Shown here piece by piece: positions 18,643 through 35,367 of a DNA stretch of 35,367 bases. The stretch is from Bacteroidota bacterium (lineage in GTDB: Bacteria; Bacteroidota; Bacteroidia; Bacteroidales; UBA1402). A program made the position numbers and the translations under genes. Where the stretch lies: the NCBI GenBank assembly GCA_030706285.1, contig JAUZOU010000003.1, positions 1 to 35,367 on the forward strand, in the 5' to 3' direction. How positions within the stretch are numbered: the first letter of the stretch is position 1; each line of letters opens with the position of its first letter. A model generated the notes under the pieces. The model did not search any database. It was not told where the DNA came from and saw nothing but the letters and a program-made list of their open reading frames with translations.

Positions 18643-19881
18643 TTATTCAGCAGGTACCACACGAATGTTGTCAATGCAGATGTTCGGGGTACAGTCCGTA
18701 CCTTTCACACCACCATTGAAAACGAAGAAGGTCAAACCGCCGCAATTTCCGGCCGTGAGTTTACCGACTTCTGCTCCAGAAGCATTATACTTGAAATTTT
18801 TGAGAGGAATGGATACGGTGATCCAACCATTCGTCGTATAAGAGCCAGATCCTTCCCACGGGATCCATAGGCCTCTCGGATAAGTGGCATCTCCGACGTA
18901 ACCGTTCGTACCGGAAGTACTCCAAGACGTAAAAATCATCTGGAGGGCTCCGGCAGACCAGGCCTGCGTCACATTCACCTCAAATTTCAGTACGGCATTT
19001 TCCACCGGAATGGAGAAAAGGTCTCCTTCCGGACGTCCGTTGGATGTCCCCCATAGGTTGAAAGCAAAAGCATCCTCATTCCAGGTTTCACCGGCACCAC
19101 CTTTCATCGTTCCTGTAAAGCGTACGTAGTTTCCGGTGATGCCCGTCGGATTGGTATTGGCAATGACACCGCTACGCCAACCACCTGAGGCATTGGTATT
19201 GTCCCAATCCAAAATCATTCCTCTGGAATCACGGAAACGGAAGGTAGAACGCGTGGAGCCATAACGGCTTTTCATGGTGATGGGGCCTTCGGTAGCGGCA
19301 GCCGGAACCTTGACGTTCAGTTGGGTTAACGTGTAAGACACGACTTCCGCCTTGATGTTGGGAGTAAAATAAACTTCCGGCACGTCAGAACCTGCTACGG
19401 AAAGGAAGTAATTGCCATTGATGGTGATGATATCTCCTGCATTGGCATATTCACACGTCAGGGTATTCAAGATCGGAGAAGGAACATCCACACCAAAATG
19501 ATAGGTCACGGTATCCTTATTCTTGTTGATCAGATAGATCTTGTTCGTCACATTGGTCGGGATGGTACTGGGTACGCTCAAAATCAAGACATCCGATTTG
19601 ATGAGACTGGAATTGAGTGTAGCCTGCACGTTGTTAAACCAAACTTCCTTCACACTGGTCATATTTTCACCAATGAGCGCAATAGTGGTTCCCATGAAAG
19701 CATGTGTCAACAGAGAATCGGAACTGAGAGCATCGGGCAGGCGGATATAATCCACCGTTGGTTCGCCACCCGTAATGACATATTCATCCGGATTATCGTC
19801 GCAAGCAGGCAAAGCGAATAACGTCAGCAAAGCCATCGCAGAAGCAACGATTTTCATGGTTGATTTCAATATATTTTTCAT
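18643..19881 (-). CDS. SusE-positioned surface glycan-binding lipoprotein (SGBP-B-like)
   Basis: Lipobox LPAC-DDNPDE. Two Ig/IPT-like domains, then a Trp-rich domain (LKFEVNV, GWITVSIPL, IDNIRVVP). Directly after susD. Confidence 0.85.
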   Translation of the reverse strand: MKNILKSTMKIVASAMALLTLFALPACDDNPDEYVITGGEPTVDYIRLPDALSSDSLLTHAFMGTTIALIGENMTSVKEVWFNNVQATLNSSLIKSDVLILSVPSTIPTNVTNKIYLINKNKDTVTYHFGVDVPSPILNTLTCEYANAGDIITINGNYFLSVAGSDVPEVYFTPNIKAEVVSYTLTQLNVKVPAAATEGPITMKSRYGSTRSTFRFRDSRGMILDWDNTNASGGWRSGVIANTNPTGITGNYVRFTGTMKGGAGETWNEDAFAFNLWGTSNGRPEGDLFSIPVENAVLKFEVNVTQAWSAGALQMIFTSWSTSGTNGYVGDATYPRGLWIPWEGSGSYTTNGWITVSIPLKNFKYNASGAEVGKLTAGNCGGLTFFVFNGGVKGTDCTPNICIDNIRVVPAE

Positions 19882-19905
19882 ATGATCGTATTTAATTTTT
19901 TTACA

Positions 19906-19980
19906 TTAAAGCCATATGTAACACCGCATGCCCAGATTAGCACTTACTTGGACGCTTTATACAAGCATGCTCGTTTCATA
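19906..19980 (-). repeat. Structured intergenic repeat, copy A (homologous to 35002-35074)
   Basis: Hand alignment to copy B gives 23/27 and 26/34 identity in two ungapped blocks. It contains inverted GCATGC-based arms. Confidence 0.8.
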
Positions 19981-19992
19981 GTGTTACTCGTT

Positions 19993-21699
19993 TTAATATC
20001 CAATGGAACTAAAGTCAAATGCAACAGGGGCTTCGCTCAAATGCGGATTCATAGCCAAGTCTGTGTCCGGGAACGGTATGGTGAATTCAATGTCGCTGGC
20101 ATTGACCTTCCAGGATCCGATGGTCACGGTGGACTTGTCGGCCAGCTGGCCTTTATACCAAGCTTCCAGATTGTTCCAATAGCCACGTTCCTGTGCGGCC
20201 AGGCGTGCTCTTGCATCGTCCGGTTTGTAATAACTCAAACGGACAAAATCGTACCAGTTGTCCCCTTCTCCGGCCAATTCGAGTCGACGTTCTTTGAAGA
20301 TATCGTCAAACGTGATGGATGTCTTGTCAACATAGTTTTTTACACTTCTGCCACGAACGGCATTAAATGCAGCTAAGGCCTTGGCATCTGAGGTGGAGGC
20401 GTTGTTGCCCAACACCGCTTCTGCGTAGATCAGGTAAACGTCAGCCAGACGAAGGATATGAGTACTCAACGCCGTGGCCATACGAGCCATGCCCATACCG
20501 GATCCCAGTTCATGATCGTAGTTGTTGCCGACGATATGCTTCACGCAGTTGGAACCGGTACCGCTGCCATATGTGACTCCTTGAGTTGCCGCCTTGGTCC
20601 AGTCGTAGTCAAAACCGCCTTTATCCTGCCAGAAATACTCGTAATGATCACCCTGCATCATCATCGTTGCCTTGCGACGGGCGTCGGTGTTGTTGCGAGT
20701 CAGGCTGGAGGCATCTTCGCCGAAAGCTTGTTCCAAATCGATGGATATTCCAACCCAAGTACCCCAGGTATCAGCAAATTCCGAAAAATTATTCAGAGCA
20801 AGGTCAGACTGAAGGGTATTCTGCGAAGTCCACTGGGCTCCCACCGTCCATCTCCAGGCTATCAGGCTTTCATCGTTGAAGTTGTTAGCCAGGCGAAAAA
20901 TATCCGAATACTTCGGAACCAGCACTCTGCCGCTCTTTTCGATGACATAGCCGGCATATTCAGCCGCTTTTTCCAAATCGTTCTCATCCCGTACACCGGC
21001 GTCGGAATGACCCAATCCGGAACGAGTGAGATAGACCTTGGAAAGCAATCCGTAAGCCCCATATTTATCGATGCGTCCCGGATCATTCTTTTCTGGCAAA
21101 AGTTCGATCGCTTTTTCCAACGTCTTGATGATATAGGTGTAAACGTCTGCTTCAGGGGCCTTGTACACTCCATTATAATTTTTATCAGAAATCATCTTCG
21201 CATTGTCGTGGATAATGGGCACAGCGCCAAAACAACGAACCAGAAAGAAATAAGCCATGGCTTTCCAGGTCATCGCTTCACCCTTTACCGTATTTTTGGC
21301 GTACGTTGTGACATCCGGACCGGCTTTCATGTCAATATTCTGGATGACACTGTTGCAATAAGCATTGACAGACCACAGGGAAGCCGAAGCATTCCGCAAG
21401 GCATCGTCGCTCGATTTCAGTACAAAAGACTGATAGGCATCGTCAGTGCTGTAATACATGTTACCGGCCAAAACATCGCCGATCTTCACAAAGCCACGTT
21501 GAAAGTCGTACCAAGGTGAATTATAGATCGGATTCACAGATTGGAAACACTGTTCATCCGTCTGATAAAAACCATCAATGGAATAACTGTCTTCCGTAGG
21601 GCGGTCCAGAAAATCTTCGCAGGAAGAAAATCCGGCCATCAGGACGGTGGCTATCGCCAAACTCTTTATCGTCAGATTTTTCATATATTTTCCTTTCAT
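19993..21699 (-). CDS. susD: SusD/RagB family lipoprotein
   Basis: Lipobox FSSC-EDFLD, plus GEA...A.AYFFLVR.FGAVP, LRLADVYLIYAEA and ERRLELAGEG..WYD..R. Directly after susC. Confidence 0.96.
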   Translation of the reverse strand: MKGKYMKNLTIKSLAIATVLMAGFSSCEDFLDRPTEDSYSIDGFYQTDEQCFQSVNPIYNSPWYDFQRGFVKIGDVLAGNMYYSTDDAYQSFVLKSSDDALRNASASLWSVNAYCNSVIQNIDMKAGPDVTTYAKNTVKGEAMTWKAMAYFFLVRCFGAVPIIHDNAKMISDKNYNGVYKAPEADVYTYIIKTLEKAIELLPEKNDPGRIDKYGAYGLLSKVYLTRSGLGHSDAGVRDENDLEKAAEYAGYVIEKSGRVLVPKYSDIFRLANNFNDESLIAWRWTVGAQWTSQNTLQSDLALNNFSEFADTWGTWVGISIDLEQAFGEDASSLTRNNTDARRKATMMMQGDHYEYFWQDKGGFDYDWTKAATQGVTYGSGTGSNCVKHIVGNNYDHELGSGMGMARMATALSTHILRLADVYLIYAEAVLGNNASTSDAKALAAFNAVRGRSVKNYVDKTSITFDDIFKERRLELAGEGDNWYDFVRLSYYKPDDARARLAAQERGYWNNLEAWYKGQLADKSTVTIGSWKVNASDIEFTIPFPDTDLAMNPHLSEAPVAFDFSSIGY

Positions 21700-25588: not shown

Positions 25589-28500
25589 TCACCTTGTCAG
25601 TGAGAACCTAATACTGACCCCAAAGTCGGAACTTCTCACCGGGTAGGAAGATACCAACGGCACACTCGATTCCAGATCATAAAACAGGACTAAATTCATG
25701 TTCTTGCTCATCGTATAATCGCCGGAAAGCTCGACAACAAATGTCTTATTACCCGAAGATGCCTGCGTATAGTCGCCTTCAATCTTCCTGAGCAACGCAT
25801 GCATATCCTTATATTTCAGATTACCGGTCAGATTCAGGTCATTCTTAACCTTCGAGCCTTTCATAAAACCCCACGGATGGAAATCGCTCAATTTGTAGCC
25901 TGTCCCCGCTCCAATCTGATTCTGATCGGTCTCAATAATCTGTCCGCCACTGATGCTCAGGCTTAGAGCACGTGTCTTTGTTATCTCGGTATTCAATGTC
26001 AAACCGCTATTCAGGGTCCCCTGGATTCGCAGCAACGGATTGAACGATTCAGTCAATGTTACAGCAGAAATGTCATACATCGAAGACGGGACAGCACTAT
26101 TGGTCAAAACGTCACGAACAAAGCCCAATCCATCGCCGGCGTTCTGCCAGGTACTGTACGTTGAGAAGGATGAAACGCCGTATGTGCACGTGTAGTTATG
26201 GTTGAGTGTGACGCTCTTGAAGTATTTCCTGATAAATTCCAGTTTGGATAGACCATCGTACGAAATACTCCAGTTCGGCAGCATGGACAGTAACCCAGGA
26301 AAGAGGTCCAGGCTGGAAGTTCTGGCGTCCTTGCCCGAATAAGCGGCCAAAAATGCAGGGATCAGCACATCGGCCGAATTCAGATCGAAGGCACCATTGG
26401 ATTTATTGTACACACTGCCAGCCAAAGGAGTATCTTTCAGGAAGCCGGTCGAAGGATACAGTTTTCCAGCCATCTTCTCTTCCAGTCTGCTGGCGATCAT
26501 CGACCGGTTTGCCAAAAACGTTTCAAAGGCCTTCGACCGGTATCCGTTTGATGCTTTGGACGATTCAAATGCAGTAGACAGTGCGATGGTGGTCATGGTA
26601 AAATTACCTGTCCTGGTTTCAGGCATGCCATCATACATATACTGAATTTCCGTATTGAAATTCCACGCCCTGGCTCCATTGAATTCAATCTTCAGGCTTG
26701 GTAAAATTTCCAGCGAAGCTTTCACTCGTAAATCGGTATTTTTCGTCATGTACGCCGGCGTCATCACCGTATCCAGCACCAACCAATTCTTGTCCAGCGC
26801 TTTCTGCAGATAATCCGAGCCCTGAAAGCCCAACGCGTAGTCCCAACCTGGAGCCGTTCCATAATCCGTCTGAGAAATCAAGCCTGTTTCAGGTTTAAAA
26901 CCCGGAATGGTCAACCCGTCAGATTGCTTGTATATAACTGAAACATTCCGGACAGACATCAATGTGCGGGCAATAAAGCTGACCGGCTTATACCAGTCTT
27001 CCTCTTCCAACTCCGGCTTTTGCAGGACTGTTATCTTTACGGTGCCATCTTTGGGGCCTTTGACAGCCAGGCTGTTTTCGTCTTTAATGTGATAATCCAA
27101 CTGGACTTTCTTCCCGGCAGAATCGACGGCTACGGCAAACACCCGTTTGTTTTTCAAGCCGTGTTTGATCAGTATGGCAGAATCCGCAAACAGATTCACT
27201 TCCTTTTCAAATTTTCTGGAAGTCTTGACAGGCGTTGCCGGTACGGCTCCGGGTGTTTTCTTGTCCTGTGGTTTGACCGACTTGTCGTCCGGCGCTTTTT
27301 TACCGGCTGTTTGTTTCTCTGTTTTCTTGGTCGTAACAGGCCGTTGTGGGGTGGGTTTGTTTGCCTGGGCGAGTATCTTTTTAAGGAAAGCCGACTTATT
27401 GTACAGGGTCGTCATATTGGCAGAAGCTGTCATACTCATGGTTCGCTGGTTGGATATCTGGTTTCCAAGGTCGTTGTCTGTGCCTGACGTCGTACTGCGT
27501 TCCCAATTATAAACGGCATTATACTGGGAATTCAGCGTCAAGAAATCAAAGGCTGGGAGCCGGTTCAACGGCACTTGCCACGTCAGATTGACGGTCTGGG
27601 AATAATTCAACGGTGTTCCGAAACTTCTCAGGCTCCGGCTCACCGTATCTTTCCAATTTTCATACTCAGTTGCATACAGTGCTTTGTTCACCGGTGCATA
27701 ACGGGTCTCTTCCACTTCTGCCTGATTATTGACAGAGGCGTTGAGTTTCAGATTTTTGGTCAAGTTCCAGTTGACAACCAAATCAGAATTCCATAGGAAA
27801 TTCTTGCTGACAGTCAGAGGCGTTGCCAACTCTTCGGCCGAGGTGGTCGACAGATTTCTGGACTGAAGCTCATAATAATAACGGGTCAACTTCGAACTGG
27901 CCGTCACTGAATTCGGCAGGAAATTCAAATTCAATTCTTTCAGCAGTTTGAGCCAGGATGAAGTCATCTTCTTGTCGTTGGCAAACGGTTGCCAGGGTTT
28001 CAACGGTGAAGCATAATTGTAGTTGACACCACCCTGATAATTCTGGGTAATTTCATATTCGGTTGTCGGATCGTGTTCATCCGACTCCGTGGAATTGTAA
28101 TTGAACGAGAAATTGGCCGGGTCGAACGGCATTGGCGTTTTGCTTTTCAGATTAATCCTGACATTCGAGAAGTTCATACTCTTGTATGTTTTCAGCGTCT
28201 GACTGTAATTCAGGATGGAATCACGAACAGCCTTACTTTTAGTTGACTTCAGTACATCTTTCAAAAGCAGGTCTTCATTGAGCGGATCATATTTCGGAAG
28301 CGTGCGTTCCTTCGAAATGGAATAATAGAACGGGAAGTTCACTTTCGCCTTTTCAGGAAACAAACGCCCAAGATCGGTATTGAAGGAGATATTGTATTGG
28401 CTGTACGTATCCTGCCTGCGCTGTGAAACACTTTCTTCCAGCCCTCCGAAACCGTCGGTGATGTATTTTCCGCTGGCTGTCACCGTCCCCAAATCCGATA

Positions 28501-31500
28501 CATTGAGCACGGCACTTCCCAGTGCAGCCCAGCCCCCGTTGTCCTTAAATCCTGAAAGCCGCAATTCATCAGCCCAGATTTCCAGCGATTTAACCGTACC
28601 GCTTTTGTTCCGGATCCCGATCATGATGGTTTCCACATCTGAGAGCGTCGGATTTCCTTTTATTTTGACCTTGTTTTGTTCATTATCAGGATCATATTCT
28701 GAATATTCGGTTGTGTAGTTTCCTCCTGAGACTGCGTTTCGTTTGGTCTTGAGTTTGGTAAACAAATCAAACGGGATGTCAAGATAATTATTCTCTGGCC
28801 AGATAGAACGTGCCGTGTTTACATAAAAGGGTGAGATTTCCAATGGCACTTCATATTCATAATAGTTGCTCTGGTTGTCGGAACCTAAGCGAATAAACAC
28901 TGTTGTTTCATAATTCTTCGGCGGATTCAGGTCATTCTGAAGCGCCTCGGCATGAACAAACAGTTGAATCCGTTTATATTGTCTAAAATCGTATGACGTG
29001 TTTTTATAAATCGCCCTGGCGTCATTCGGCGACAGATTGTTTACCCGTAGAGCCAGGGATTGTTCATCTTCCAGATAGACACCAGGCTGGCTGGGATCCG
29101 TTTCCTGTTCAACACCAGGTGGCAACTTATAGTTGATGGGGCTTCTTCCGGAATTTTCCTCCAGACTGACGGTCGATACATCCATCGTCGCATCGGAAAT
29201 CGGTACCGATCCGGCTGTATAAAGATCTTTCGTATACGAGCGCCAGTCTCCGCGTACCAATTCCAACGTACCGAACCTCAGAATCACACTGTCCTGAAAA
29301 CCGGTCAGAAACAGGCGCATAAACCGGATGCTGCTGAACCCGTTTATGGTACCTACTTTCTTTTCGTAGTCTGTAATGGGCACTTTAAACTGATACCATT
29401 TCACCTTGGCGGTTTTGCCGTTTTTCAAGGTAACGGTAGCAACTCGCTTATCATTGATAAAATTCTGCCCGACGATGGTATCGGACGGCCTTAATGAAAC
29501 CCGGTATTGATAATACCGTTCCGATTCATTCAGCGTAAAATCGAGGTTGATATCCTCGACATTGGGCAAGGTCGTAGCTGCTGTAGAATAGGTCTCATTG
29601 GTATATTCTGGGGGTAATGAGTTGCCTTCTGTTCCGTTGTAATGTTTGTAACGATCCAGAATGTCCGTTTTTTTACTGTCAAAATCAGAGCCTCTGAAAT
29701 AATGGTAATCATCCCCGGCCGGGTCATTCAACGGAGAGAATTTATCGTCTGTCATTTCTTCCAGCGCTGTCGGGTTTAATTTGGCTTTGACTCCTTTTAC
29801 ATAATCCGAAACGCCAGGCCAGGTTGCTTCTTCTTCGTCCGACAAACCATCCAGACCGACATCCTGTTTAACCCTGACACCTGCGGTATTGTCAAACGAA
29901 TAGGCCGTTGATGATTTGCTGGAAACCTTTCCCCAGGCCGTTTCGCTGACAAGCGATGCATCCGACGCATTCGTCGGCAGTCCATTTTCAAACGAGCGTT
30001 TGCCATCTTTCAGCACATCTTCTGATATCTCGCCCAGGTCAAAGTAGAGATCACCGCCAGTGGCCACATCCGTTGAGTCGTATACAAACGGGTCCATCAG
30101 CCAGAACTCTATGTATTCGACATTATTGGATTCGAAATTCGTATAGCCGGACTCTATCTTGCGCATGATACCGCCCCAGCGTTTTTCAGGATGAGACAAT
30201 GTTCCATCCGCTTGCATGCCATCCACATCATAATTATATGGGCCACGCTGTTTGGGATAAAAAGCAAGGTTCATGACTGGCAAAATGCCAACCTGGTTAA
30301 ACGCAATGTCCCTGTCCGGAAAGATTTCTTTTTCATTGACAACACGGACATAATGGTTGGAGAGTTGGTCGACATCGTTGCGCAGATGACTCGGTGTCTG
30401 TGAACTGTTGTTGTAGTTTAATGTTCCGTCAATGGAATACCAGGCCAGCAGGGCACGGTTGTAGCCATAGGCCAGATCGTTTGATTTGGCGGCCTCCGGG
30501 AACAGCCCCCCGGAAGGATCGTAAGGCGTACTGGCCAAGAACCATTGCGTCATATCCTTCAGGTTATACGTCTTTTTGGCTGATTCAAAATCATCCACGT
30601 AAGAAACATTTTTCAGTTCGCTGGATGTTCCGGCTACCAGTTTGGCATATTCTGCGCTGACAGTCAAACTTGAAGGCTTGGTTGCTTCAATCAGCGGAAG
30701 CTTGTCCACCAGATTGGTCAGCAATTGCGATTCTGTCTTGAAGGATGTGTTCACTCCGAAAATGGTATTCGAAACAGATTCATAACCCATATCGACCTTG
30801 GTGGTTAGCGGTGTTTCAGACAGATGCATCATGGTACCGCCCAAACTGAAATTATCATTGAACTTATAATTCAAGGCGAGCCCGGTCATGGTTTTTCGAA
30901 CCATACTGTAGGTGGACTGATCTTCGCAAGTCGCATTAATCGCTGTTCCGGAGGTAATCAGGTCGGAATTCGTAATGGTCACCGTTCCGGAAATATAATC
31001 CACGGTATAATCGACATTCTCCGTCAACTTCTGACCTCCGGCCGTAACAGTCACAGATCCTTGAGCCACATTGGTCGCACCAAGGGATATGGTGGCGCCC
31101 GAAGAAGCCTTGTATTCACCGGTGATCCGGAACTTATTCTTCTCAGACAATTGCTGAGCCACCGTCAACGTCGAATCATAAAGTTCCTCGAACACATATT
31201 TGTCTGCCAATGCATCATCGCCGATCGCCTGGCGCAAATGGGATCCGAAGGGCTCCAGCACCGGAAATATGATACGGCCATACGTGGACTGAACGGTATA
31301 ACCCTCCACAAAGTCGAACAATCCGTCCGGATAGGCTTGTTGTTTGGAGTTCAGCCTGTCCAGTCCCATCACTTTCAGCAGCAAGGTGTTTTTGATTTTC
31401 CCTTCCGTCAGGTAAGTCATATCTGTCCCTACAGAATCACTCTGATAAACCACATTCAGTTTAAAACCATCCGATTGAAGGTTATAGGCATCGCCAAGGG

Positions 31501-33052
31501 TATATACGTTTTTCATCATCAAATCCCAAGTCGGTGCTGATGGTGAACAATTGGTTCCTTTCAACAACTTCAGAAACAAGGTTTGGGGTGCCTGGATGCC
31601 ATCAGTGGAAAATTCTCCGACTTGATACGTCTGCCCACCTTTCGAGTATTCATAGGCCACGGCCAAAATTTCATCACTGTTGAGCGCCTGCTTGAGAGAT
31701 ATATAGCCCAATGTACTGTTCAAGGTATATTCAGACGCATCCAAACGCCGGGCACTTTCCAGCCGTTCGTAATCTTCTCCTACCGCAAGGCCGATTGGTG
31801 AAAGCGTAGAATTGACATCGCTGAACGTACGGGCGCCCGCATATTGATTGGTAATTTCGGAATAAAGGCTGTTGCTTCCGTTGGATGGATAGGTTCCGGT
31901 CGAGGTCCAGTGTGAATTGCTGATGTATGCAGGTTCAGCCAGATCGGCAAAAGCGACAATGTTTCTGGCATTGTCCAATGTACTGGTTTTGTTGGTGACC
32001 CAGACTTCAACCTTCGTAACGGTCATACCGGAAGAGACATACGGTAATTTACTCATCCAGGTATCATAATGATCGCGAAAATAATGAGACAGGAAAAAAT
32101 GCCTGTTCTCATCATAGTTATCGACTGCCAGGTCAAATTTTCTGGACTGCGCACCGCCTTCGAGACTGACCGATTTTGTCTGTGAATTTTGTTGGGATAC
32201 CACCGTTGCCACAGATAACTTTCCGAACTGCAACTCGGTCTTGACTCCAAATAACGATGAACCGCCTGTGATCAGGGAACTGTTCAATGGCATGCTGACA
32301 TTACCGGCCTCTATCGACTTAATGATATCGTCCTCTTTGCCATCATAGTGTAATTTGACAGACTTGGCATCATAATTGAAGGTGGCCTGTGTGTCATAAT
32401 TCATGTTGACATCGATCTTGTCTCCCACTTTTCCATTGACACTCATCTGAATCTGAGGGTCAAAATTGAACATCGTTTTGTTTCGTGCCGTTTCAGATAA
32501 AGAGGGATTGTCCACTTTATTGGTTTTTAAGCCGAATTTAGTTTCAATGGATCCCTGCGTTTTAAGCCGGACGCCTCCTTCACCAAAAATTTTGTCACCG
32601 AGCCCAAGATCAAACTGCATATCCGTCAGGGAAAAATCCTGACCCTTTTTCGTATAATCAACCTTGTTTTTTTCTTTCCAATAAGCGGCAGAAGACTGTT
32701 GTTGCTGGTACTTCAGGTATTCCTGCTGGGTCAGGTTGATCGGGGTCCCGATTTTAGTATCGCCCAGGTAGGTGACCAGAGAATACAGTCCGGTTTCCGG
32801 ATCATATTCCACTTTAGACTCAATGTTCGATGGATTTTTCAAGTCTCCGGTTTTACTTTCCGTCAGGTCTTCCATCGTTTCCGGGATCGTTTTCGATACG
32901 GGATGAACCGGACGTTTGGCTTCTGCCAAGGCACTGTCTTGCTGTCCGGCAGCCATATTCACCTCAGTTTGTGGTGACGCCGCTGAAAAGATACTGAATG
33001 CACCGGCCAGTGAAAACAGTAAAAATAGCAGGATGGACAGTGGACGTTTCAA
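25589..33052 (-). CDS. sprA: Type IX secretion system outer-membrane translocon SprA (Sov)
   Basis: 2487 aa with signal peptide and TTG start. Motifs include IEAGNVSMPL..SLITG..SLFG, ENRHFFL, RWGGIMR, EYIEFWLMDP, WYQFKVP and WADELRL. Follows ruvA, as in other Bacteroidetes. Confidence 0.95.
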   Translation of the reverse strand: MKRPLSILLFLLFSLAGAFSIFSAASPQTEVNMAAGQQDSALAEAKRPVHPVSKTIPETMEDLTESKTGDLKNPSNIESKVEYDPETGLYSLVTYLGDTKIGTPINLTQQEYLKYQQQQSSAAYWKEKNKVDYTKKGQDFSLTDMQFDLGLGDKIFGEGGVRLKTQGSIETKFGLKTNKVDNPSLSETARNKTMFNFDPQIQMSVNGKVGDKIDVNMNYDTQATFNYDAKSVKLHYDGKEDDIIKSIEAGNVSMPLNSSLITGGSSLFGVKTELQFGKLSVATVVSQQNSQTKSVSLEGGAQSRKFDLAVDNYDENRHFFLSHYFRDHYDTWMSKLPYVSSGMTVTKVEVWVTNKTSTLDNARNIVAFADLAEPAYISNSHWTSTGTYPSNGSNSLYSEITNQYAGARTFSDVNSTLSPIGLAVGEDYERLESARRLDASEYTLNSTLGYISLKQALNSDEILAVAYEYSKGGQTYQVGEFSTDGIQAPQTLFLKLLKGTNCSPSAPTWDLMMKNVYTLGDAYNLQSDGFKLNVVYQSDSVGTDMTYLTEGKIKNTLLLKVMGLDRLNSKQQAYPDGLFDFVEGYTVQSTYGRIIFPVLEPFGSHLRQAIGDDALADKYVFEELYDSTLTVAQQLSEKNKFRITGEYKASSGATISLGATNVAQGSVTVTAGGQKLTENVDYTVDYISGTVTITNSDLITSGTAINATCEDQSTYSMVRKTMTGLALNYKFNDNFSLGGTMMHLSETPLTTKVDMGYESVSNTIFGVNTSFKTESQLLTNLVDKLPLIEATKPSSLTVSAEYAKLVAGTSSELKNVSYVDDFESAKKTYNLKDMTQWFLASTPYDPSGGLFPEAAKSNDLAYGYNRALLAWYSIDGTLNYNNSSQTPSHLRNDVDQLSNHYVRVVNEKEIFPDRDIAFNQVGILPVMNLAFYPKQRGPYNYDVDGMQADGTLSHPEKRWGGIMRKIESGYTNFESNNVEYIEFWLMDPFVYDSTDVATGGDLYFDLGEISEDVLKDGKRSFENGLPTNASDASLVSETAWGKVSSKSSTAYSFDNTAGVRVKQDVGLDGLSDEEEATWPGVSDYVKGVKAKLNPTALEEMTDDKFSPLNDPAGDDYHYFRGSDFDSKKTDILDRYKHYNGTEGNSLPPEYTNETYSTAATTLPNVEDINLDFTLNESERYYQYRVSLRPSDTIVGQNFINDKRVATVTLKNGKTAKVKWYQFKVPITDYEKKVGTINGFSSIRFMRLFLTGFQDSVILRFGTLELVRGDWRSYTKDLYTAGSVPISDATMDVSTVSLEENSGRSPINYKLPPGVEQETDPSQPGVYLEDEQSLALRVNNLSPNDARAIYKNTSYDFRQYKRIQLFVHAEALQNDLNPPKNYETTVFIRLGSDNQSNYYEYEVPLEISPFYVNTARSIWPENNYLDIPFDLFTKLKTKRNAVSGGNYTTEYSEYDPDNEQNKVKIKGNPTLSDVETIMIGIRNKSGTVKSLEIWADELRLSGFKDNGGWAALGSAVLNVSDLGTVTASGKYITDGFGGLEESVSQRRQDTYSQYNISFNTDLGRLFPEKAKVNFPFYYSISKERTLPKYDPLNEDLLLKDVLKSTKSKAVRDSILNYSQTLKTYKSMNFSNVRINLKSKTPMPFDPANFSFNYNSTESDEHDPTTEYEITQNYQGGVNYNYASPLKPWQPFANDKKMTSSWLKLLKELNLNFLPNSVTASSKLTRYYYELQSRNLSTTSAEELATPLTVSKNFLWNSDLVVNWNLTKNLKLNASVNNQAEVEETRYAPVNKALYATEYENWKDTVSRSLRSFGTPLNYSQTVNLTWQVPLNRLPAFDFLTLNSQYNAVYNWERSTTSGTDNDLGNQISNQRTMSMTASANMTTLYNKSAFLKKILAQANKPTPQRPVTTKKTEKQTAGKKAPDDKSVKPQDKKTPGAVPATPVKTSRKFEKEVNLFADSAILIKHGLKNKRVFAVAVDSAGKKVQLDYHIKDENSLAVKGPKDGTVKITVLQKPELEEEDWYKPVSFIARTLMSVRNVSVIYKQSDGLTIPGFKPETGLISQTDYGTAPGWDYALGFQGSDYLQKALDKNWLVLDTVMTPAYMTKNTDLRVKASLEILPSLKIEFNGARAWNFNTEIQYMYDGMPETRTGNFTMTTIALSTAFESSKASNGYRSKAFETFLANRSMIASRLEEKMAGKLYPSTGFLKDTPLAGSVYNKSNGAFDLNSADVLIPAFLAAYSGKDARTSSLDLFPGLLSMLPNWSISYDGLSKLEFIRKYFKSVTLNHNYTCTYGVSSFSTYSTWQNAGDGLGFVRDVLTNSAVPSSMYDISAVTLTESFNPLLRIQGTLNSGLTLNTEITKTRALSLSISGGQIIETDQNQIGAGTGYKLSDFHPWGFMKGSKVKNDLNLTGNLKYKDMHALLRKIEGDYTQASSGNKTFVVELSGDYTMSKNMNLVLFYDLESSVPLVSSYPVRSSDFGVSIRFSLTR

Positions 33053-33826: not shown

Positions 33827-34981
33827 TCACCGGTTAAGTTCGAGGCAGGCCATGATAAAAACGCCGGTGGCTTTGCCATCATCACTCCGGACCGGGGTAT
33901 GAATGTAATAATCGTAACTGCCGTCACGGTAGGGCGTTCCTCCCAAACCCGCCACTTCACAGCAATGAGTGATTGAAATGGTTCCATTTGGATTGGTTAC
34001 AATCAGGTGCTTTTTAATGCCTTTAAAGGCTTTCAACGCTATCTTCCTGTAACCGGCAGGCAAATAGCCCTTGTTCGTCGCTTTAGCGTAGAAATACATC
34101 ATCATGGCTGAGACAGAGCCTTCGAGAAAATTACCGTTCCTGTTTCCCTGATCGACGACCTGATACCAAAGGCCAGTTTGTTTATCCTGATACTTGAGCA
34201 TACCGTCAGCCAACGTTCTGACCAATTTAATCACGTCAGCCCGTTGAGGATGTGTGGCTGGAATGTAGTCCAGGTTATCCACCAATGCCATGGCATACCA
34301 ACCGATGGATCTGCCCCAGAAATTGGGAGACGTACCGGTTACCGGATTGGCCCATTTTTGAGAGCAGCTTTCGTCCCAGCCATGGTAAAACAGGCCGGTT
34401 TTCTGATCATAGGTATGTTTGGCTACCGTTATAAGCTGATGGATGGCCTCATCAATGCAGGCAGGCTGATTGAATGTTGCCCCGTATTGGGAAAGGAAGG
34501 GAGAAGCCATGTACAATCCGTCCAGCCACATCTGATGAGTGTAGACTTTCTTGTGCCAGAATCCACCGTCAGCTGTCCTTGGTTGTCCTTTAAATTGCTG
34601 AAGCAAAGTATCCATGGCCATCCGGAATCGTTTTTCACCTGTCGCTTCATACAGATAAAACAACACTTTACCCGAATTGATGAAATCCAGGTTATAGTTA
34701 TCCATTTTATAGAGATAAATTGAACCGTCTGAACCGATCAGGCTGTCTCCCCATTGATAGACATAATTGAAATACGTTTTGTTGCCTGTCGCTTTCCACA
34801 ATTTCATAAAGGCACATCCCCCAAGCCCTTGGGTATAGCCTGGAAACAAACGCGTTCCATAATCATACTGGTAAAGATGTGGAAAACGCACCATCTCAGA
34901 CTCCGCCATCCTGACAGACATTGTTGCCTGGATACCACCCAGCAGGCAAAGAAAAACAACTGTAAACATCAGTTTTTTCAT
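33827..34981 (-). CDS. GH105 (GH88/105) unsaturated uronyl hydrolase, Sec signal peptide
   Basis: YNLDFIN.GK, GGFWHKKVY, QMWLDGLYM, GLFYHGWDE, FWGRSIGW and CEVAGLGG. Likely start ATG 34981 (MKKLMF). Confidence 0.93.
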   Translation of the reverse strand: MKKLMFTVVFLCLLGGIQATMSVRMAESEMVRFPHLYQYDYGTRLFPGYTQGLGGCAFMKLWKATGNKTYFNYVYQWGDSLIGSDGSIYLYKMDNYNLDFINSGKVLFYLYEATGEKRFRMAMDTLLQQFKGQPRTADGGFWHKKVYTHQMWLDGLYMASPFLSQYGATFNQPACIDEAIHQLITVAKHTYDQKTGLFYHGWDESCSQKWANPVTGTSPNFWGRSIGWYAMALVDNLDYIPATHPQRADVIKLVRTLADGMLKYQDKQTGLWYQVVDQGNRNGNFLEGSVSAMMMYFYAKATNKGYLPAGYRKIALKAFKGIKKHLIVTNPNGTISITHCCEVAGLGGTPYRDGSYDYYIHTPVRSDDGKATGVFIMACLELNR

Positions 34982-35001
34982 CTGATAATCATTTTTTTTG
35001 T

Positions 35002-35074
35002 TTAAGGACAGATGCAACACCGCATGCCGATGATCCTCTGCTTGAGTGCCTGGTACAGGCATGCGCGTTTCATA
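35002..35074 (-). repeat. Structured intergenic repeat, copy B (homologous to 19906-19980)
   Basis: Shares AACACCGCATGCC and TACAnGCATGCnCGTTTCATA with copy A. Perfect 8-bp inverted arms CGCATGCC (35021-35028) and GGCATGCG (35058-35065). Confidence 0.8.
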
Positions 35075-35100: not shown

Positions 35101-35108
35101 CAAAGTTA
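35101..35108 (-). promoter_or_regulatory. Candidate -7 promoter element for the GH105 gene
   Basis: Minus-strand TAACTTTG matches TAnnTTTG, 120 nt upstream of ATG 34981. Confidence 0.6.
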
Positions 35109-35142
35109 AAAAAAAGCAGAGAATCTTCCGACTTTCTGCTTC
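35108..35142 (-). terminator. Intrinsic terminator after the partial susD-like gene
   Basis: Minus strand AAGCAGAAAG-TCGGAAGAT-TCTCTGC followed by T8, about 40 nt after the stop at 35183. Confidence 0.75.
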
Positions 35143-35182
35143 TTTATTCAATGATAGACACTATCTATCGTATTTGTCCGGA

Positions 35183-35367
35183 TTAATTGGCTGACACCAG
35201 TTTCCAAGGGACAAAATAACCTCCGGCCAGAATCTTGGCCCGTATGGTTGCGGCATTGCCTTCATACTTCGGGCAAACCCGGTCTGCGACGATATTATAG
35301 TCGTTCCAGCGTTTGGCAACCCGGATCAATGCCGGATAAATTTTGCCCTCGCAGGGAAATTCAAGCA
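35183..35367 (-). CDS. 3' end of a probable SusD-family protein (partial; not in ORF track)
   Basis: Hand translation: LEFPCEGKIYPALIRVAKRWNDYNIVADRVCPKYEGNAATIRAKILAGGYFVPWKLVSAN*. LEFxxEGxxxxxLxR resembles the SusD C-terminal motif. Only 60 aa are visible. Confidence 0.6.
   Translation of the reverse strand, partial: LEFPCEGKIYPALIRVAKRWNDYNIVADRVCPKYEGNAATIRAKILAGGYFVPWKLVSAN

Follow-up and report, generated by a model that had tools for sequence, protein, structure and literature searches.

The DNA considered here is a window of 35,367 nucleotides, the whole of the stretch that was analysed, from contig JAUZOU010000003.1 of a Bacteroidota bacterium (order Bacteroidales, UBA1402), and it carries two copies of a short repeat which belongs to a large family. 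The members of this family are dispersed, strand-specific and placed directly against start codons, they share conserved base pairings, and orthologous sites are found filled in one genome and empty in another. The family is probably a dispersed, non-autonomous repeat that targets start codons in the manner of MIRUs (mycobacterial interspersed repetitive units), supplying the gene with a new leader and sparing its start codon. Small dispersed repeats are ordinary as a class; what is unusual about this one is the target, the strict orientation and the covarying stem over the start codon. Copy A (19882..19980, on the minus strand, which is the mRNA strand) reads 5' TATGAAACGAGCATGC ... GATCAT 3', its 5' limit being T19980 within TATGAAAC and its last base, at 19882, adjoining a start codon. 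Copy B (34982..35074, minus strand) reads 5' TATGAAACGCGCATGCC ... TTATCAG 3' and spans from T35074 to 34982, so that it reaches the ATG at 34981-34979 and extends further 3' than position 35002, which had been proposed first. An earlier note on the same DNA had described a shared, structured element reaching the start codon in these two places. Both look-alike stretches exist where it had put them, and the sharing, the structure, the strand specificity and the reach to the start codon were all confirmed, the alignment of the copies running over 137 MAFFT columns with 81% mean column identity through and past the start codons.

The statement that the element occurs twice holds for the window alone. 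In the genome from which the window comes (639 contigs, 3.60 Mb, 44.8% G+C; designated G000, the other G numbers used below standing for congeners) iterated nhmmer, run to convergence, gave 86 copies at E<=1e-3, and the BLASTN search at word size 7 which had been suggested as a check likewise returned dozens of matches there. A covariance model was built from 60 of the 70 full-length copies (alignment A2) and found 74 matches in the same genome. Copy A was recovered by nhmmer at 19980-19898 with 72.2 bits and by the covariance model at 19982-19873 with 93 bits; for copy B the values were 74.8 bits at 35074-34994 and 108.6 bits, the best match of the model in the genome. Near-duplicate contigs covering one locus occur several times, and the count of 86 therefore includes a few loci twice. 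These near-duplicates (C84/C354, C185/C91, C517/C487 and C144/C155; in addition C485 overlaps the end of the window) suggest a strain mixture in the assembly, for which a contamination of 5.26% was estimated. Pairwise identity among the copies of this genome has a median of 64% and a maximum of 88.9%, with a nearest-neighbour median of 81%, and there is no near-identical pair. Membership in any Rfam family was rejected: the whole window gave 0 matches at the gathering score, the surroundings of copy A at E<=10 only SNORD72 (19.2 bits versus a gathering score of 43), and six copy-bearing loci at E<=1 only mir-3618 (30.9 bits versus 99). The earlier note, which had not recognised a known family, was right in this respect.

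Open reading frames (ORFs), required to have at least 100 amino acids or to be open to the contig end, start on the same strand 0-20 nucleotides past the end of the model in 66 of the 86 copies; 65 of them begin with ATGAA and 56 with ATGAAA. When a gene start was sought on the opposite strand beyond the 5' end of the copies as a control, the count was 0 of 86. Of the other 20 copies, three lie at contig ends, two are the leading units of tandem pairs, some are long or truncated variants with the ATG beyond the search range, and about ten are without a usable ORF. On the other side a same-strand ORF of at least 100 amino acids lies upstream of 76 copies. Its stop codon overlaps the element in 15 cases, as the TGA in aTGAaac or in TGATG, and lies 0-20 nucleotides before it in 24. 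The unit typically occupies the entire gap between two operon genes, and it is intercistronic and in one orientation with the operon, as MIRU-like start-codon inserts are. According to the earlier note a scatter of copies in either orientation, regardless of polysaccharide utilization loci (PULs), would point to a generic repeat; the independence from PULs was indeed found, the random orientation was not. The conserved ATGAAAC at the 5' end looks like a gene start and can mislead start-codon calling.

One unit has a length of about 95-105 nucleotides. From 5' to 3' it is composed of (N)ATGAAACGAGC(A/C)TG, a variable hairpin region, CATGCG, 1-3 nucleotides, GTT(N)CAT-NNN and G(N)CCTT(A/G)AAC, to which are joined a run of A and about ten bases finishing in ATCA(T/G), and then the ATGAAA of the gene. 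The blocks ATGAAACGAGC and CATGCG are at least 90% conserved amid variable columns, as is the ATGAAAC at the 5' end, for which the near-invariant columns 4-14 of alignment A2 are the evidence. In copy A this gene-start look-alike is found at 19973..19979 (minus strand) and can pair with GUUACAU at 19922-19916. Besides the common form there is a long variant of about 190 nucleotides (C104:5878, C421:808 and C155:53 in G000, and locus L168, the argD-proC junction of G006), in which an extra structured block of about 90 nucleotides replaces the ATGATCAT region; C144 resembles the C155 locus without this block. A second repeat type has another interior and the same ends (ATGAAACGAGCC..., ...GCGAGTT..., ...AAAAAAATAATGAGATGAAA) and stands in tandem behind the first type at the leuA-leuB (L157) and argD-proC (L168) junctions of G006.

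RNAalifold predicted no consensus structure for the 60 copies of alignment A2; helices were therefore named by hand and their pairs counted. The long-range stem of GCAUG(Y)(Y) with (R)(R)CAUGC (columns 13-20 and 64-70) is paired in 87.9% of the cells, the pair types being AU 40 and CG 5 at columns 15-68 and CG 24 and UA 16 at columns 19-65. The outer pairing of AUG.AAC with GUU.CAU (columns 3-10 and 74-82) reaches 82.9%. These two correspond to the inner pairing of GCAUGC with GCAUGC and the outer pairing of AUGAAACG with CGUU.CAU which had been drawn from the two window copies, and both proved to be real in the larger set. A local hairpin (columns 17-22 and 29-34) is paired in 79.9%, with CG 22 and UA 17 at columns 19-32, and a stem of CAU-NNN with NNN-AUG, which takes in the start codon (columns 78-84 and 113-118), in 81%, with AU 25 and CG 15 at columns 82-115 in this genome. 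When the helices were slid as a control, the paired fraction fell to 20-42%. The outer pairing and the start-codon stem exclude each other because of the common CAU, and the local hairpin and the long-range stem overlap in three columns. Mutual information mostly recovered subfamily structure and not new helices, and the minimum free energy (MFE) folds of the two window copies were no more stable than those of shuffled sequence (z -0.63 and -1.65). In copy A the 5' arm of the start-codon stem, CATATG at 19913..19918 (minus strand), can pair in the MFE fold with CATATG at 19884-19879, and this 3' arm (19879..19884, minus strand) includes the ATG 19881-19879 of the following gene.

Strong covariation marks the stem over the start codon. 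Among the matches listed, it is 93.5% paired in an alignment (A3) of 77 copies which belong to other genera and were fitted by the model. One of its pairs occurs there as CG 30, AU 15, UA 11 and GC 7 and the next one as CG 34, AU 15 and UA 12, and the triplet behind the internal CAT changes together with the one ahead of the ATG, as in CATCAG/CTGATG, CATCCG/CGGATG, CATACG/CGTATG and CATTAG/CTAATG.

Comparison within the genus revealed sites with and without the element. The model matched in six of 13 congeners (7-40 matches each, one with a single match) and in none of the other seven, one of which is 97% complete in 9 contigs. Two sister genera, with 11 genomes, gave no match, and of 16 other families in the order 3 matched weakly; this run over congeners and families had stricter filters, by which at least one diverged copy (in G009) was missed. 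The leuA-leuB junction is filled in the window's genome and without the element in 9 of the 10 congeners compared, the empty spacers measuring 7-36 nucleotides in eight of them and 67 nucleotides in G005, with leuB beginning ATGAA(A/G); G006 has a partial copy there together with the second repeat type with the same ends. The longer spacer of G005 (L158) contains a small G+C-rich hairpin, CCGGTTTCGCCGG, and may hold another small insert. At argD-proC, also filled here, 7 of 9 congeners lack the element, G006 carries the long variant and the second type in tandem, and G009 a short diverged copy. The tgt-lptF/G junction is filled here and without the element in 11 of 11 congeners. As to the two sites of the window, the junction corresponding to copy B consists in G008 of a terminator, 18 nucleotides and ATGAAC, and is without the element in G005 as well; the one corresponding to copy A is a 16-nucleotide spacer in both G005 and G008, ending in TATCAT directly before ATGAAAAAT. 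In the reverse test, which started from 20 copies of G006, the orthologous gene in the window's genome was clear and could be assessed for five, and not one of these is filled there. Filled versus empty orthologous sites, a mark of MIRU-like start-codon inserts, are thus present in the family.

The element is not confined to this genus. Scanning one genome per species with an exact pattern gave at least 123 loci, 80 of which were examined as listed. Among the matches listed, the carriers are Anaerophaga thermohalophila (two genomes, many loci), Thermophagus, Marinilabilia salmonicolor, Draconibacterium, Mariniphaga, Maribellus, Tangfeifania, Prolixibacteraceae, Paludibacter, Microbacter, one Flavobacteriaceae genome and one Saprospiraceae genome. 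The model fits end to end 77 times among the 80 loci listed, and ATGA(A/G) follows 75-128 nucleotides downstream, mostly 90-97, in 77 of the 89 pattern occurrences in these matches. Five carrier genomes gave 86, 14, 47, 19 and 21 model matches. Cultured strains with the element are Anaerophaga thermohalophila, Thermophagus xiamenensis and Marinilabilia salmonicolor, and in a viral contig collection the pattern was found in one contig. The two Anaerophaga genomes, about 91% identical in the flanking DNA, differ from each other at element sites. At the first site one of the genomes carries a block of 388 nucleotides, equal to two and a half units, which the other lacks cleanly; the right border of the block lies exactly between ...ACGG and ATGAAAC. 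At the second site one unit in one genome faces three unlike head-to-tail units in the other, each with its matching CAT-NNN/NNN-ATG. Tandem pairs with a common ATGAAAC boundary also exist in the window's genome (C166 and C57).

Probably, then, the element is or has been mobile and would spread by insertion at sequences like ATGAAA(C), for which gene starts encoding Met-Lys would be the commonest tolerated kind. Such an insertion would leave behind the unit an ATGAAA start preceded by the unit's own A-rich leader, so that the gene could still be expressed, and the native leader would now stand ahead of the AUG at the 5' end of the unit. The insertion would also create a fresh target at the end of the unit, and because each unit would recreate the target in this way, heterogeneous tandem arrays are to be expected. 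A ribosome that starts at the 5' AUG may translate a short frame across the 5' arm of the stem over the start codon and thereby free the real AUG. The pairings, 5' AUGAAAC and GCAUG with CAUGC..GUU.CAU and CAU-NNN with NNN-AUG, may be needed for an insertion reaction that uses a folded single strand, for translation of the host gene, or for both.

Several observations weigh against a mobile, start-codon-targeting repeat. No transposase or other mobilising gene was found linked to the element. No target-site duplication was detected beyond ATGAAA: comparison of flank with tail gave 4.44/12 within a copy and 4.31 between copies (p 0.21), with p 0.027 for flank positions -6 to -1 within versus between copies; a few sites show repeats of 12-18 nucleotides, and generally ATGAAA(C) alone is repeated at both borders. 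As the copies are old, judged by the identities given above, current mobility in this genome is not shown. Metagenome contigs from four runs contained no joint skipping either window copy, and the loose ends of such contigs at the element borders (19980 and 35073) turned out to be other repeat copies; the stretch is present in seven DNA runs, from sludge, bioreactor and wastewater metagenomes, with no RNA run among them. Presence and absence were compared without a rooted tree, which leaves gain and loss indistinguishable, and since the TATCAT adjoining the ATG in the spacers of G005 and G008 resembles the tail of the element, these spacers could be remnants and not virgin sites. A version of the element stands at argD-proC in each of G000, G006 and G009, whose coding identity there is only about 70%, and this could mean long retention by selection instead of repeated insertion. 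About ten copies have no usable ORF behind them. The covariation counts of A3 are biased towards the structure of the model, to which that alignment was fitted, and the pattern by which its loci had been picked prescribes part of stems 1 and 2. Among the partial matches in the window's genome no longer element ending in ATGAAACGAGC... and ...NNNATGAAA was seen, a systematic search for one not having been made.

It is possible but not likely that the element is or has turned into an RNA leader useful to the host, in which the start codon held in the CAU-NNN/NNN-AUG stem would let the translation of dozens of unrelated genes be tuned together, for instance through temperature, an RNA-binding protein or a coupling to translation that begins at the 5' AUG, dispersal being merely the route of distribution. 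This would fit the compensatory changes which preserve the stem across genera and among copies only about 64% alike here, the conserved blocks amid variable columns, the retention of a version at argD-proC in three species, and the location on the mRNA strand in 66 of 86 copies. The short frame from the 5' AUG would fit as well: in 13 copies, each with a 5' ATG, it runs for 23 codons, its stop (codon 24) lying beyond the 5' arm of the start-codon stem, and it stops as ATGA on the real start in about seven copies and 4-20 nucleotides ahead of it in many others. On the other hand many copies have an interrupted or very short frame, and about twelve have a mutated 5' ATG. The genes behind the element have no common function, their congener orthologues manage without it, and both the fold energies of the window copies, like those of shuffled sequence, and the lack of an RNAalifold consensus speak against such a leader. 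Equal covariation would moreover be expected if transposition from master copies required the pairing. A gene-specific cis-regulatory leader of the riboswitch kind was rejected on the grounds of the unrelated downstream functions, the five junctions empty in most congeners and the five genes filled in G006, none of which is filled here.

A more specific version of mobility, which is rather unlikely, is a self-guided unit that seeks start codons. An internal segment of it, GTTNCAT-NNN, would pair at the 5' border with the ATGAAAC of the target and at the 3' end with the NNN-ATG of the unit itself, so that nucleic-acid pairing within a folded single strand would choose both ends and target, as with the guides of IS200/IS605 or the bridge RNAs of IS110. 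Repetitive extragenic palindromes (REP, REPIN) and IS200/IS605 elements work as folded single strands, and IS200/IS605 elements target a short sequence via an internal guide pairing; the ability of GTTNCAT-NNN to pair with both border sequences is a likeness to these. The driving enzyme would be other than a Y1 transposase, and insertion would regenerate the gene start and a new target, which would account both for tandem arrays made up of unlike units and for the wide distribution in Bacteroidota. The Y1 transposase family PF01797 had matches in 0 of 14 genomes of the genus (control genomes did give matches). It is present in 3 of 5 other carriers, flanked there by its own G+C-rich hairpin repeats, and missing from 2. 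A derivative of IS200/IS605, or of REP/REPIN with their REP-associated tyrosine transposases (RAYTs), was rejected on this basis. RAYT-like Y1 genes amid arrays of G+C-rich hairpins were seen at L318 (Marinilabilia, 1000-2480) and L319 (Anaerophaga, 1250-2120), and the repeats flanking them, of the GGGCTTTCAGCCC and CGCCCCTTTGGGGC types, are a separate REP-like system.

The earlier note had interpreted the two copies as a cis-acting RNA motif of PULs placed after susD, serving as a site of processing, of stability or of small RNA (sRNA) action. Both window copies and two further copies in the genome do follow SusD or susD-like genes. However, when the 68 upstream ORFs were searched with Pfam, only three were SusD and three SusC-like, so that the predicted enrichment after susD was not found; the others include leuA, a class-III aminotransferase, tgt, glycogen synthase, a NuoE-like ferredoxin, IMPDH and regulators. 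On the downstream side 17 of the 68 ORFs were without a family. Housekeeping functions are represented there by a leuB-type dehydrogenase, pyrroline-5-carboxylate reductase (proC), formyltransferase (fmt), cytidylate kinase, LptF/G, a NuoF-like protein and cobalamin adenosyltransferase, envelope and secretion functions by signal peptidase, a LolA-like protein, MMPL and peptidyl-prolyl isomerases; histidine kinases, many glycoside hydrolases, two SusC-like proteins and two SusD proteins are also present. Apart from leuA-leuB, argD-proC and tgt-lptF/G, the element separates glycogen synthase from phosphorylase and NuoE-like from NuoF-like genes. The corresponding PUL junctions of congeners, both window ones included, are without it, and copy B stands behind a terminator-like hairpin and may be off the susD transcript. 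The element is not a PUL or susD motif, and the two window copies carry no PUL-specific message; a PUL-specific role is accordingly given very little credence. The other idea put forward in the same place, a reusable leader or junction, came close to the data.

That the 5' ATG opens a small gene for a functional peptide (MKRACLYQ...) is highly improbable and was rejected, as neither the length nor the start of the frame is conserved: its first eight codons are indeed highly conserved, and two subfamilies both have the frame of 23 codons in spite of two indels that offset each other, but across the copies it ranges from 2 to 63 codons, fuses into the downstream gene in at least six, meets early stops or lacks the start in many, differs or ends at codon 11-12 in other genera (read by eye), and the conservation tracks base-pairing and not codon positions.

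The closest known system in behaviour is that of the MIRUs. According to two papers these are mobile, insert at start codons with a coupled internal ORF at little cost to the gene, measure 40-100 bp, and are present in dozens of copies in the intercistronic gaps of operons, with empty and filled orthologous sites (PMC12548453, PMC3184786). The element resembles them in its small size, its dozens of copies, its location in operon gaps, its filled and empty sites and, in some copies, an internal frame touching its neighbours, with the 15 upstream stops overlapping the 5' ATG and several short frames ending as ATGA on the real start. It differs in belonging to another phylum, the likeness being one of behaviour and not of sequence family. 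It further differs in the A-rich leader with ATGAAA behind the unit and the stem over the start codon, in place of an ORF coupled at a fixed -4 position. Its short frame is not conserved, and no tetranucleotide direct repeat was seen except for ATGAAA. REP2 of Neisseria and the IR of Borrelia are described as lying directly upstream of genes, providing the ribosome-binding region and the ATG and containing stem-loops (PMC3184786). They carry a promoter, whereas none was recognised by eye in the element, a scan for Bacteroidota promoters not having been run; the likeness is one by description.

Classical MITEs (miniature inverted-repeat transposable elements) have terminal inverted repeats at both ends and a fixed target duplication such as TA, and they insert in either orientation. 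The inverted repeat of the element instead joins its 5' end to an internal segment (columns 3-17 and 66-82, 12/15 consensus bases). A conserved tail of about 35 nucleotides lies outside this inverted repeat, and the orientation is fixed relative to the gene. A classical MITE was rejected, since the terminal inverted repeats are not at both ends. Correia/NEMIS, ERIC and other MITEs of bacteria are non-autonomous repeats of about 100-150 nucleotides which are co-transcribed with their neighbours and can fold (PMC3184786). In Bacteroides the FopS/GibS RNAs form a multicopy family tied to the translation-initiation regions of PUL genes, FopS comprising 14 free-standing sRNAs of 65-70 nucleotides with their own promoters, acting in trans (PMC11697453). 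Compared by description, the element differs from them in that it forms a leader joined to the start codon, reaches up to 86 copies and lacks specificity for PULs, and an sRNA of the FopS type was set aside as a different kind of RNA. With the attC sites of integrons, ATGAAAC and GTTNCAT share only AAC and GTT of the RYYYAAC and GTTRRRY cores when compared by eye, and the copies lie inside housekeeping operons, unlike cassette arrays. Searches of the literature on repeats of Bacteroidota and Anaerophaga, judged by their listings, showed no published account of such a start-codon repeat.

All genes around both window copies are on the minus strand. Copy A is preceded by a susD-like gene (19993..21699, minus strand; SusD_RagB 3.5e-25), the stop codon of which, at 19995-19993, lies 12 nucleotides ahead of the element. 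It is followed by a surface glycan-binding protein gene (18643..19881, minus strand; SGBP_B_XBD, TIG) which begins ATGAAAAAT with the ATG 19881-19879. Behind copy B a Glyco_hydro_88 gene (33827..34981, minus strand; Pfam 1.2e-107) begins ATGAAAAAA. Glyco_hydro_88 is the Pfam family which also contains GH105 enzymes. Upstream of copy B the contig end truncates a susD-like gene, of which the 3' end alone is present (35183..35365, minus strand). This 60-residue piece had no Pfam match by itself; a congener has an orthologue of 559 amino acids, which is 83% identical to the piece along its 60 residues and matches SusD_RagB with 26.3 bits versus a cut-off of 23.1, which supports the earlier assignment of the ORF as SusD. 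Both window copies follow susD-like genes, judged for copy B from this orthologue. Between the susD-like gene and copy B lies a hairpin with a U8 tract of the intrinsic-terminator type (35108..35145, minus strand), which folds at -15.9 kcal/mol (z -3.3) and was missed by a simple terminator scan; a congener carries a terminator-like hairpin at the equivalent position. In view of this strong hairpin the gene of glycoside hydrolase family 88 behind copy B may have its own transcript, and copy B need not belong to the susD transcript. An ORF of 2487 amino acids at 25589-33052 (minus strand) lies between two PUL-like gene groups.

Translation initiation in Bacteroidota relies on A-rich leaders and not on Shine-Dalgarno sites. 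A repeat which lands on start codons and leaves the gene usable would be a second independent example of the strategy of the MIRUs. Because cultured strains carry the element, both its mobility and what it does to translation are testable at the bench, and the strongly covarying start-codon stem offers a clear handle for such tests. For the annotation of Bacteroidota genomes it would mean that dozens of intergenic stretches appearing as conserved structured RNAs, those in PUL spacers included, are one repeat and not locus-specific regulators.

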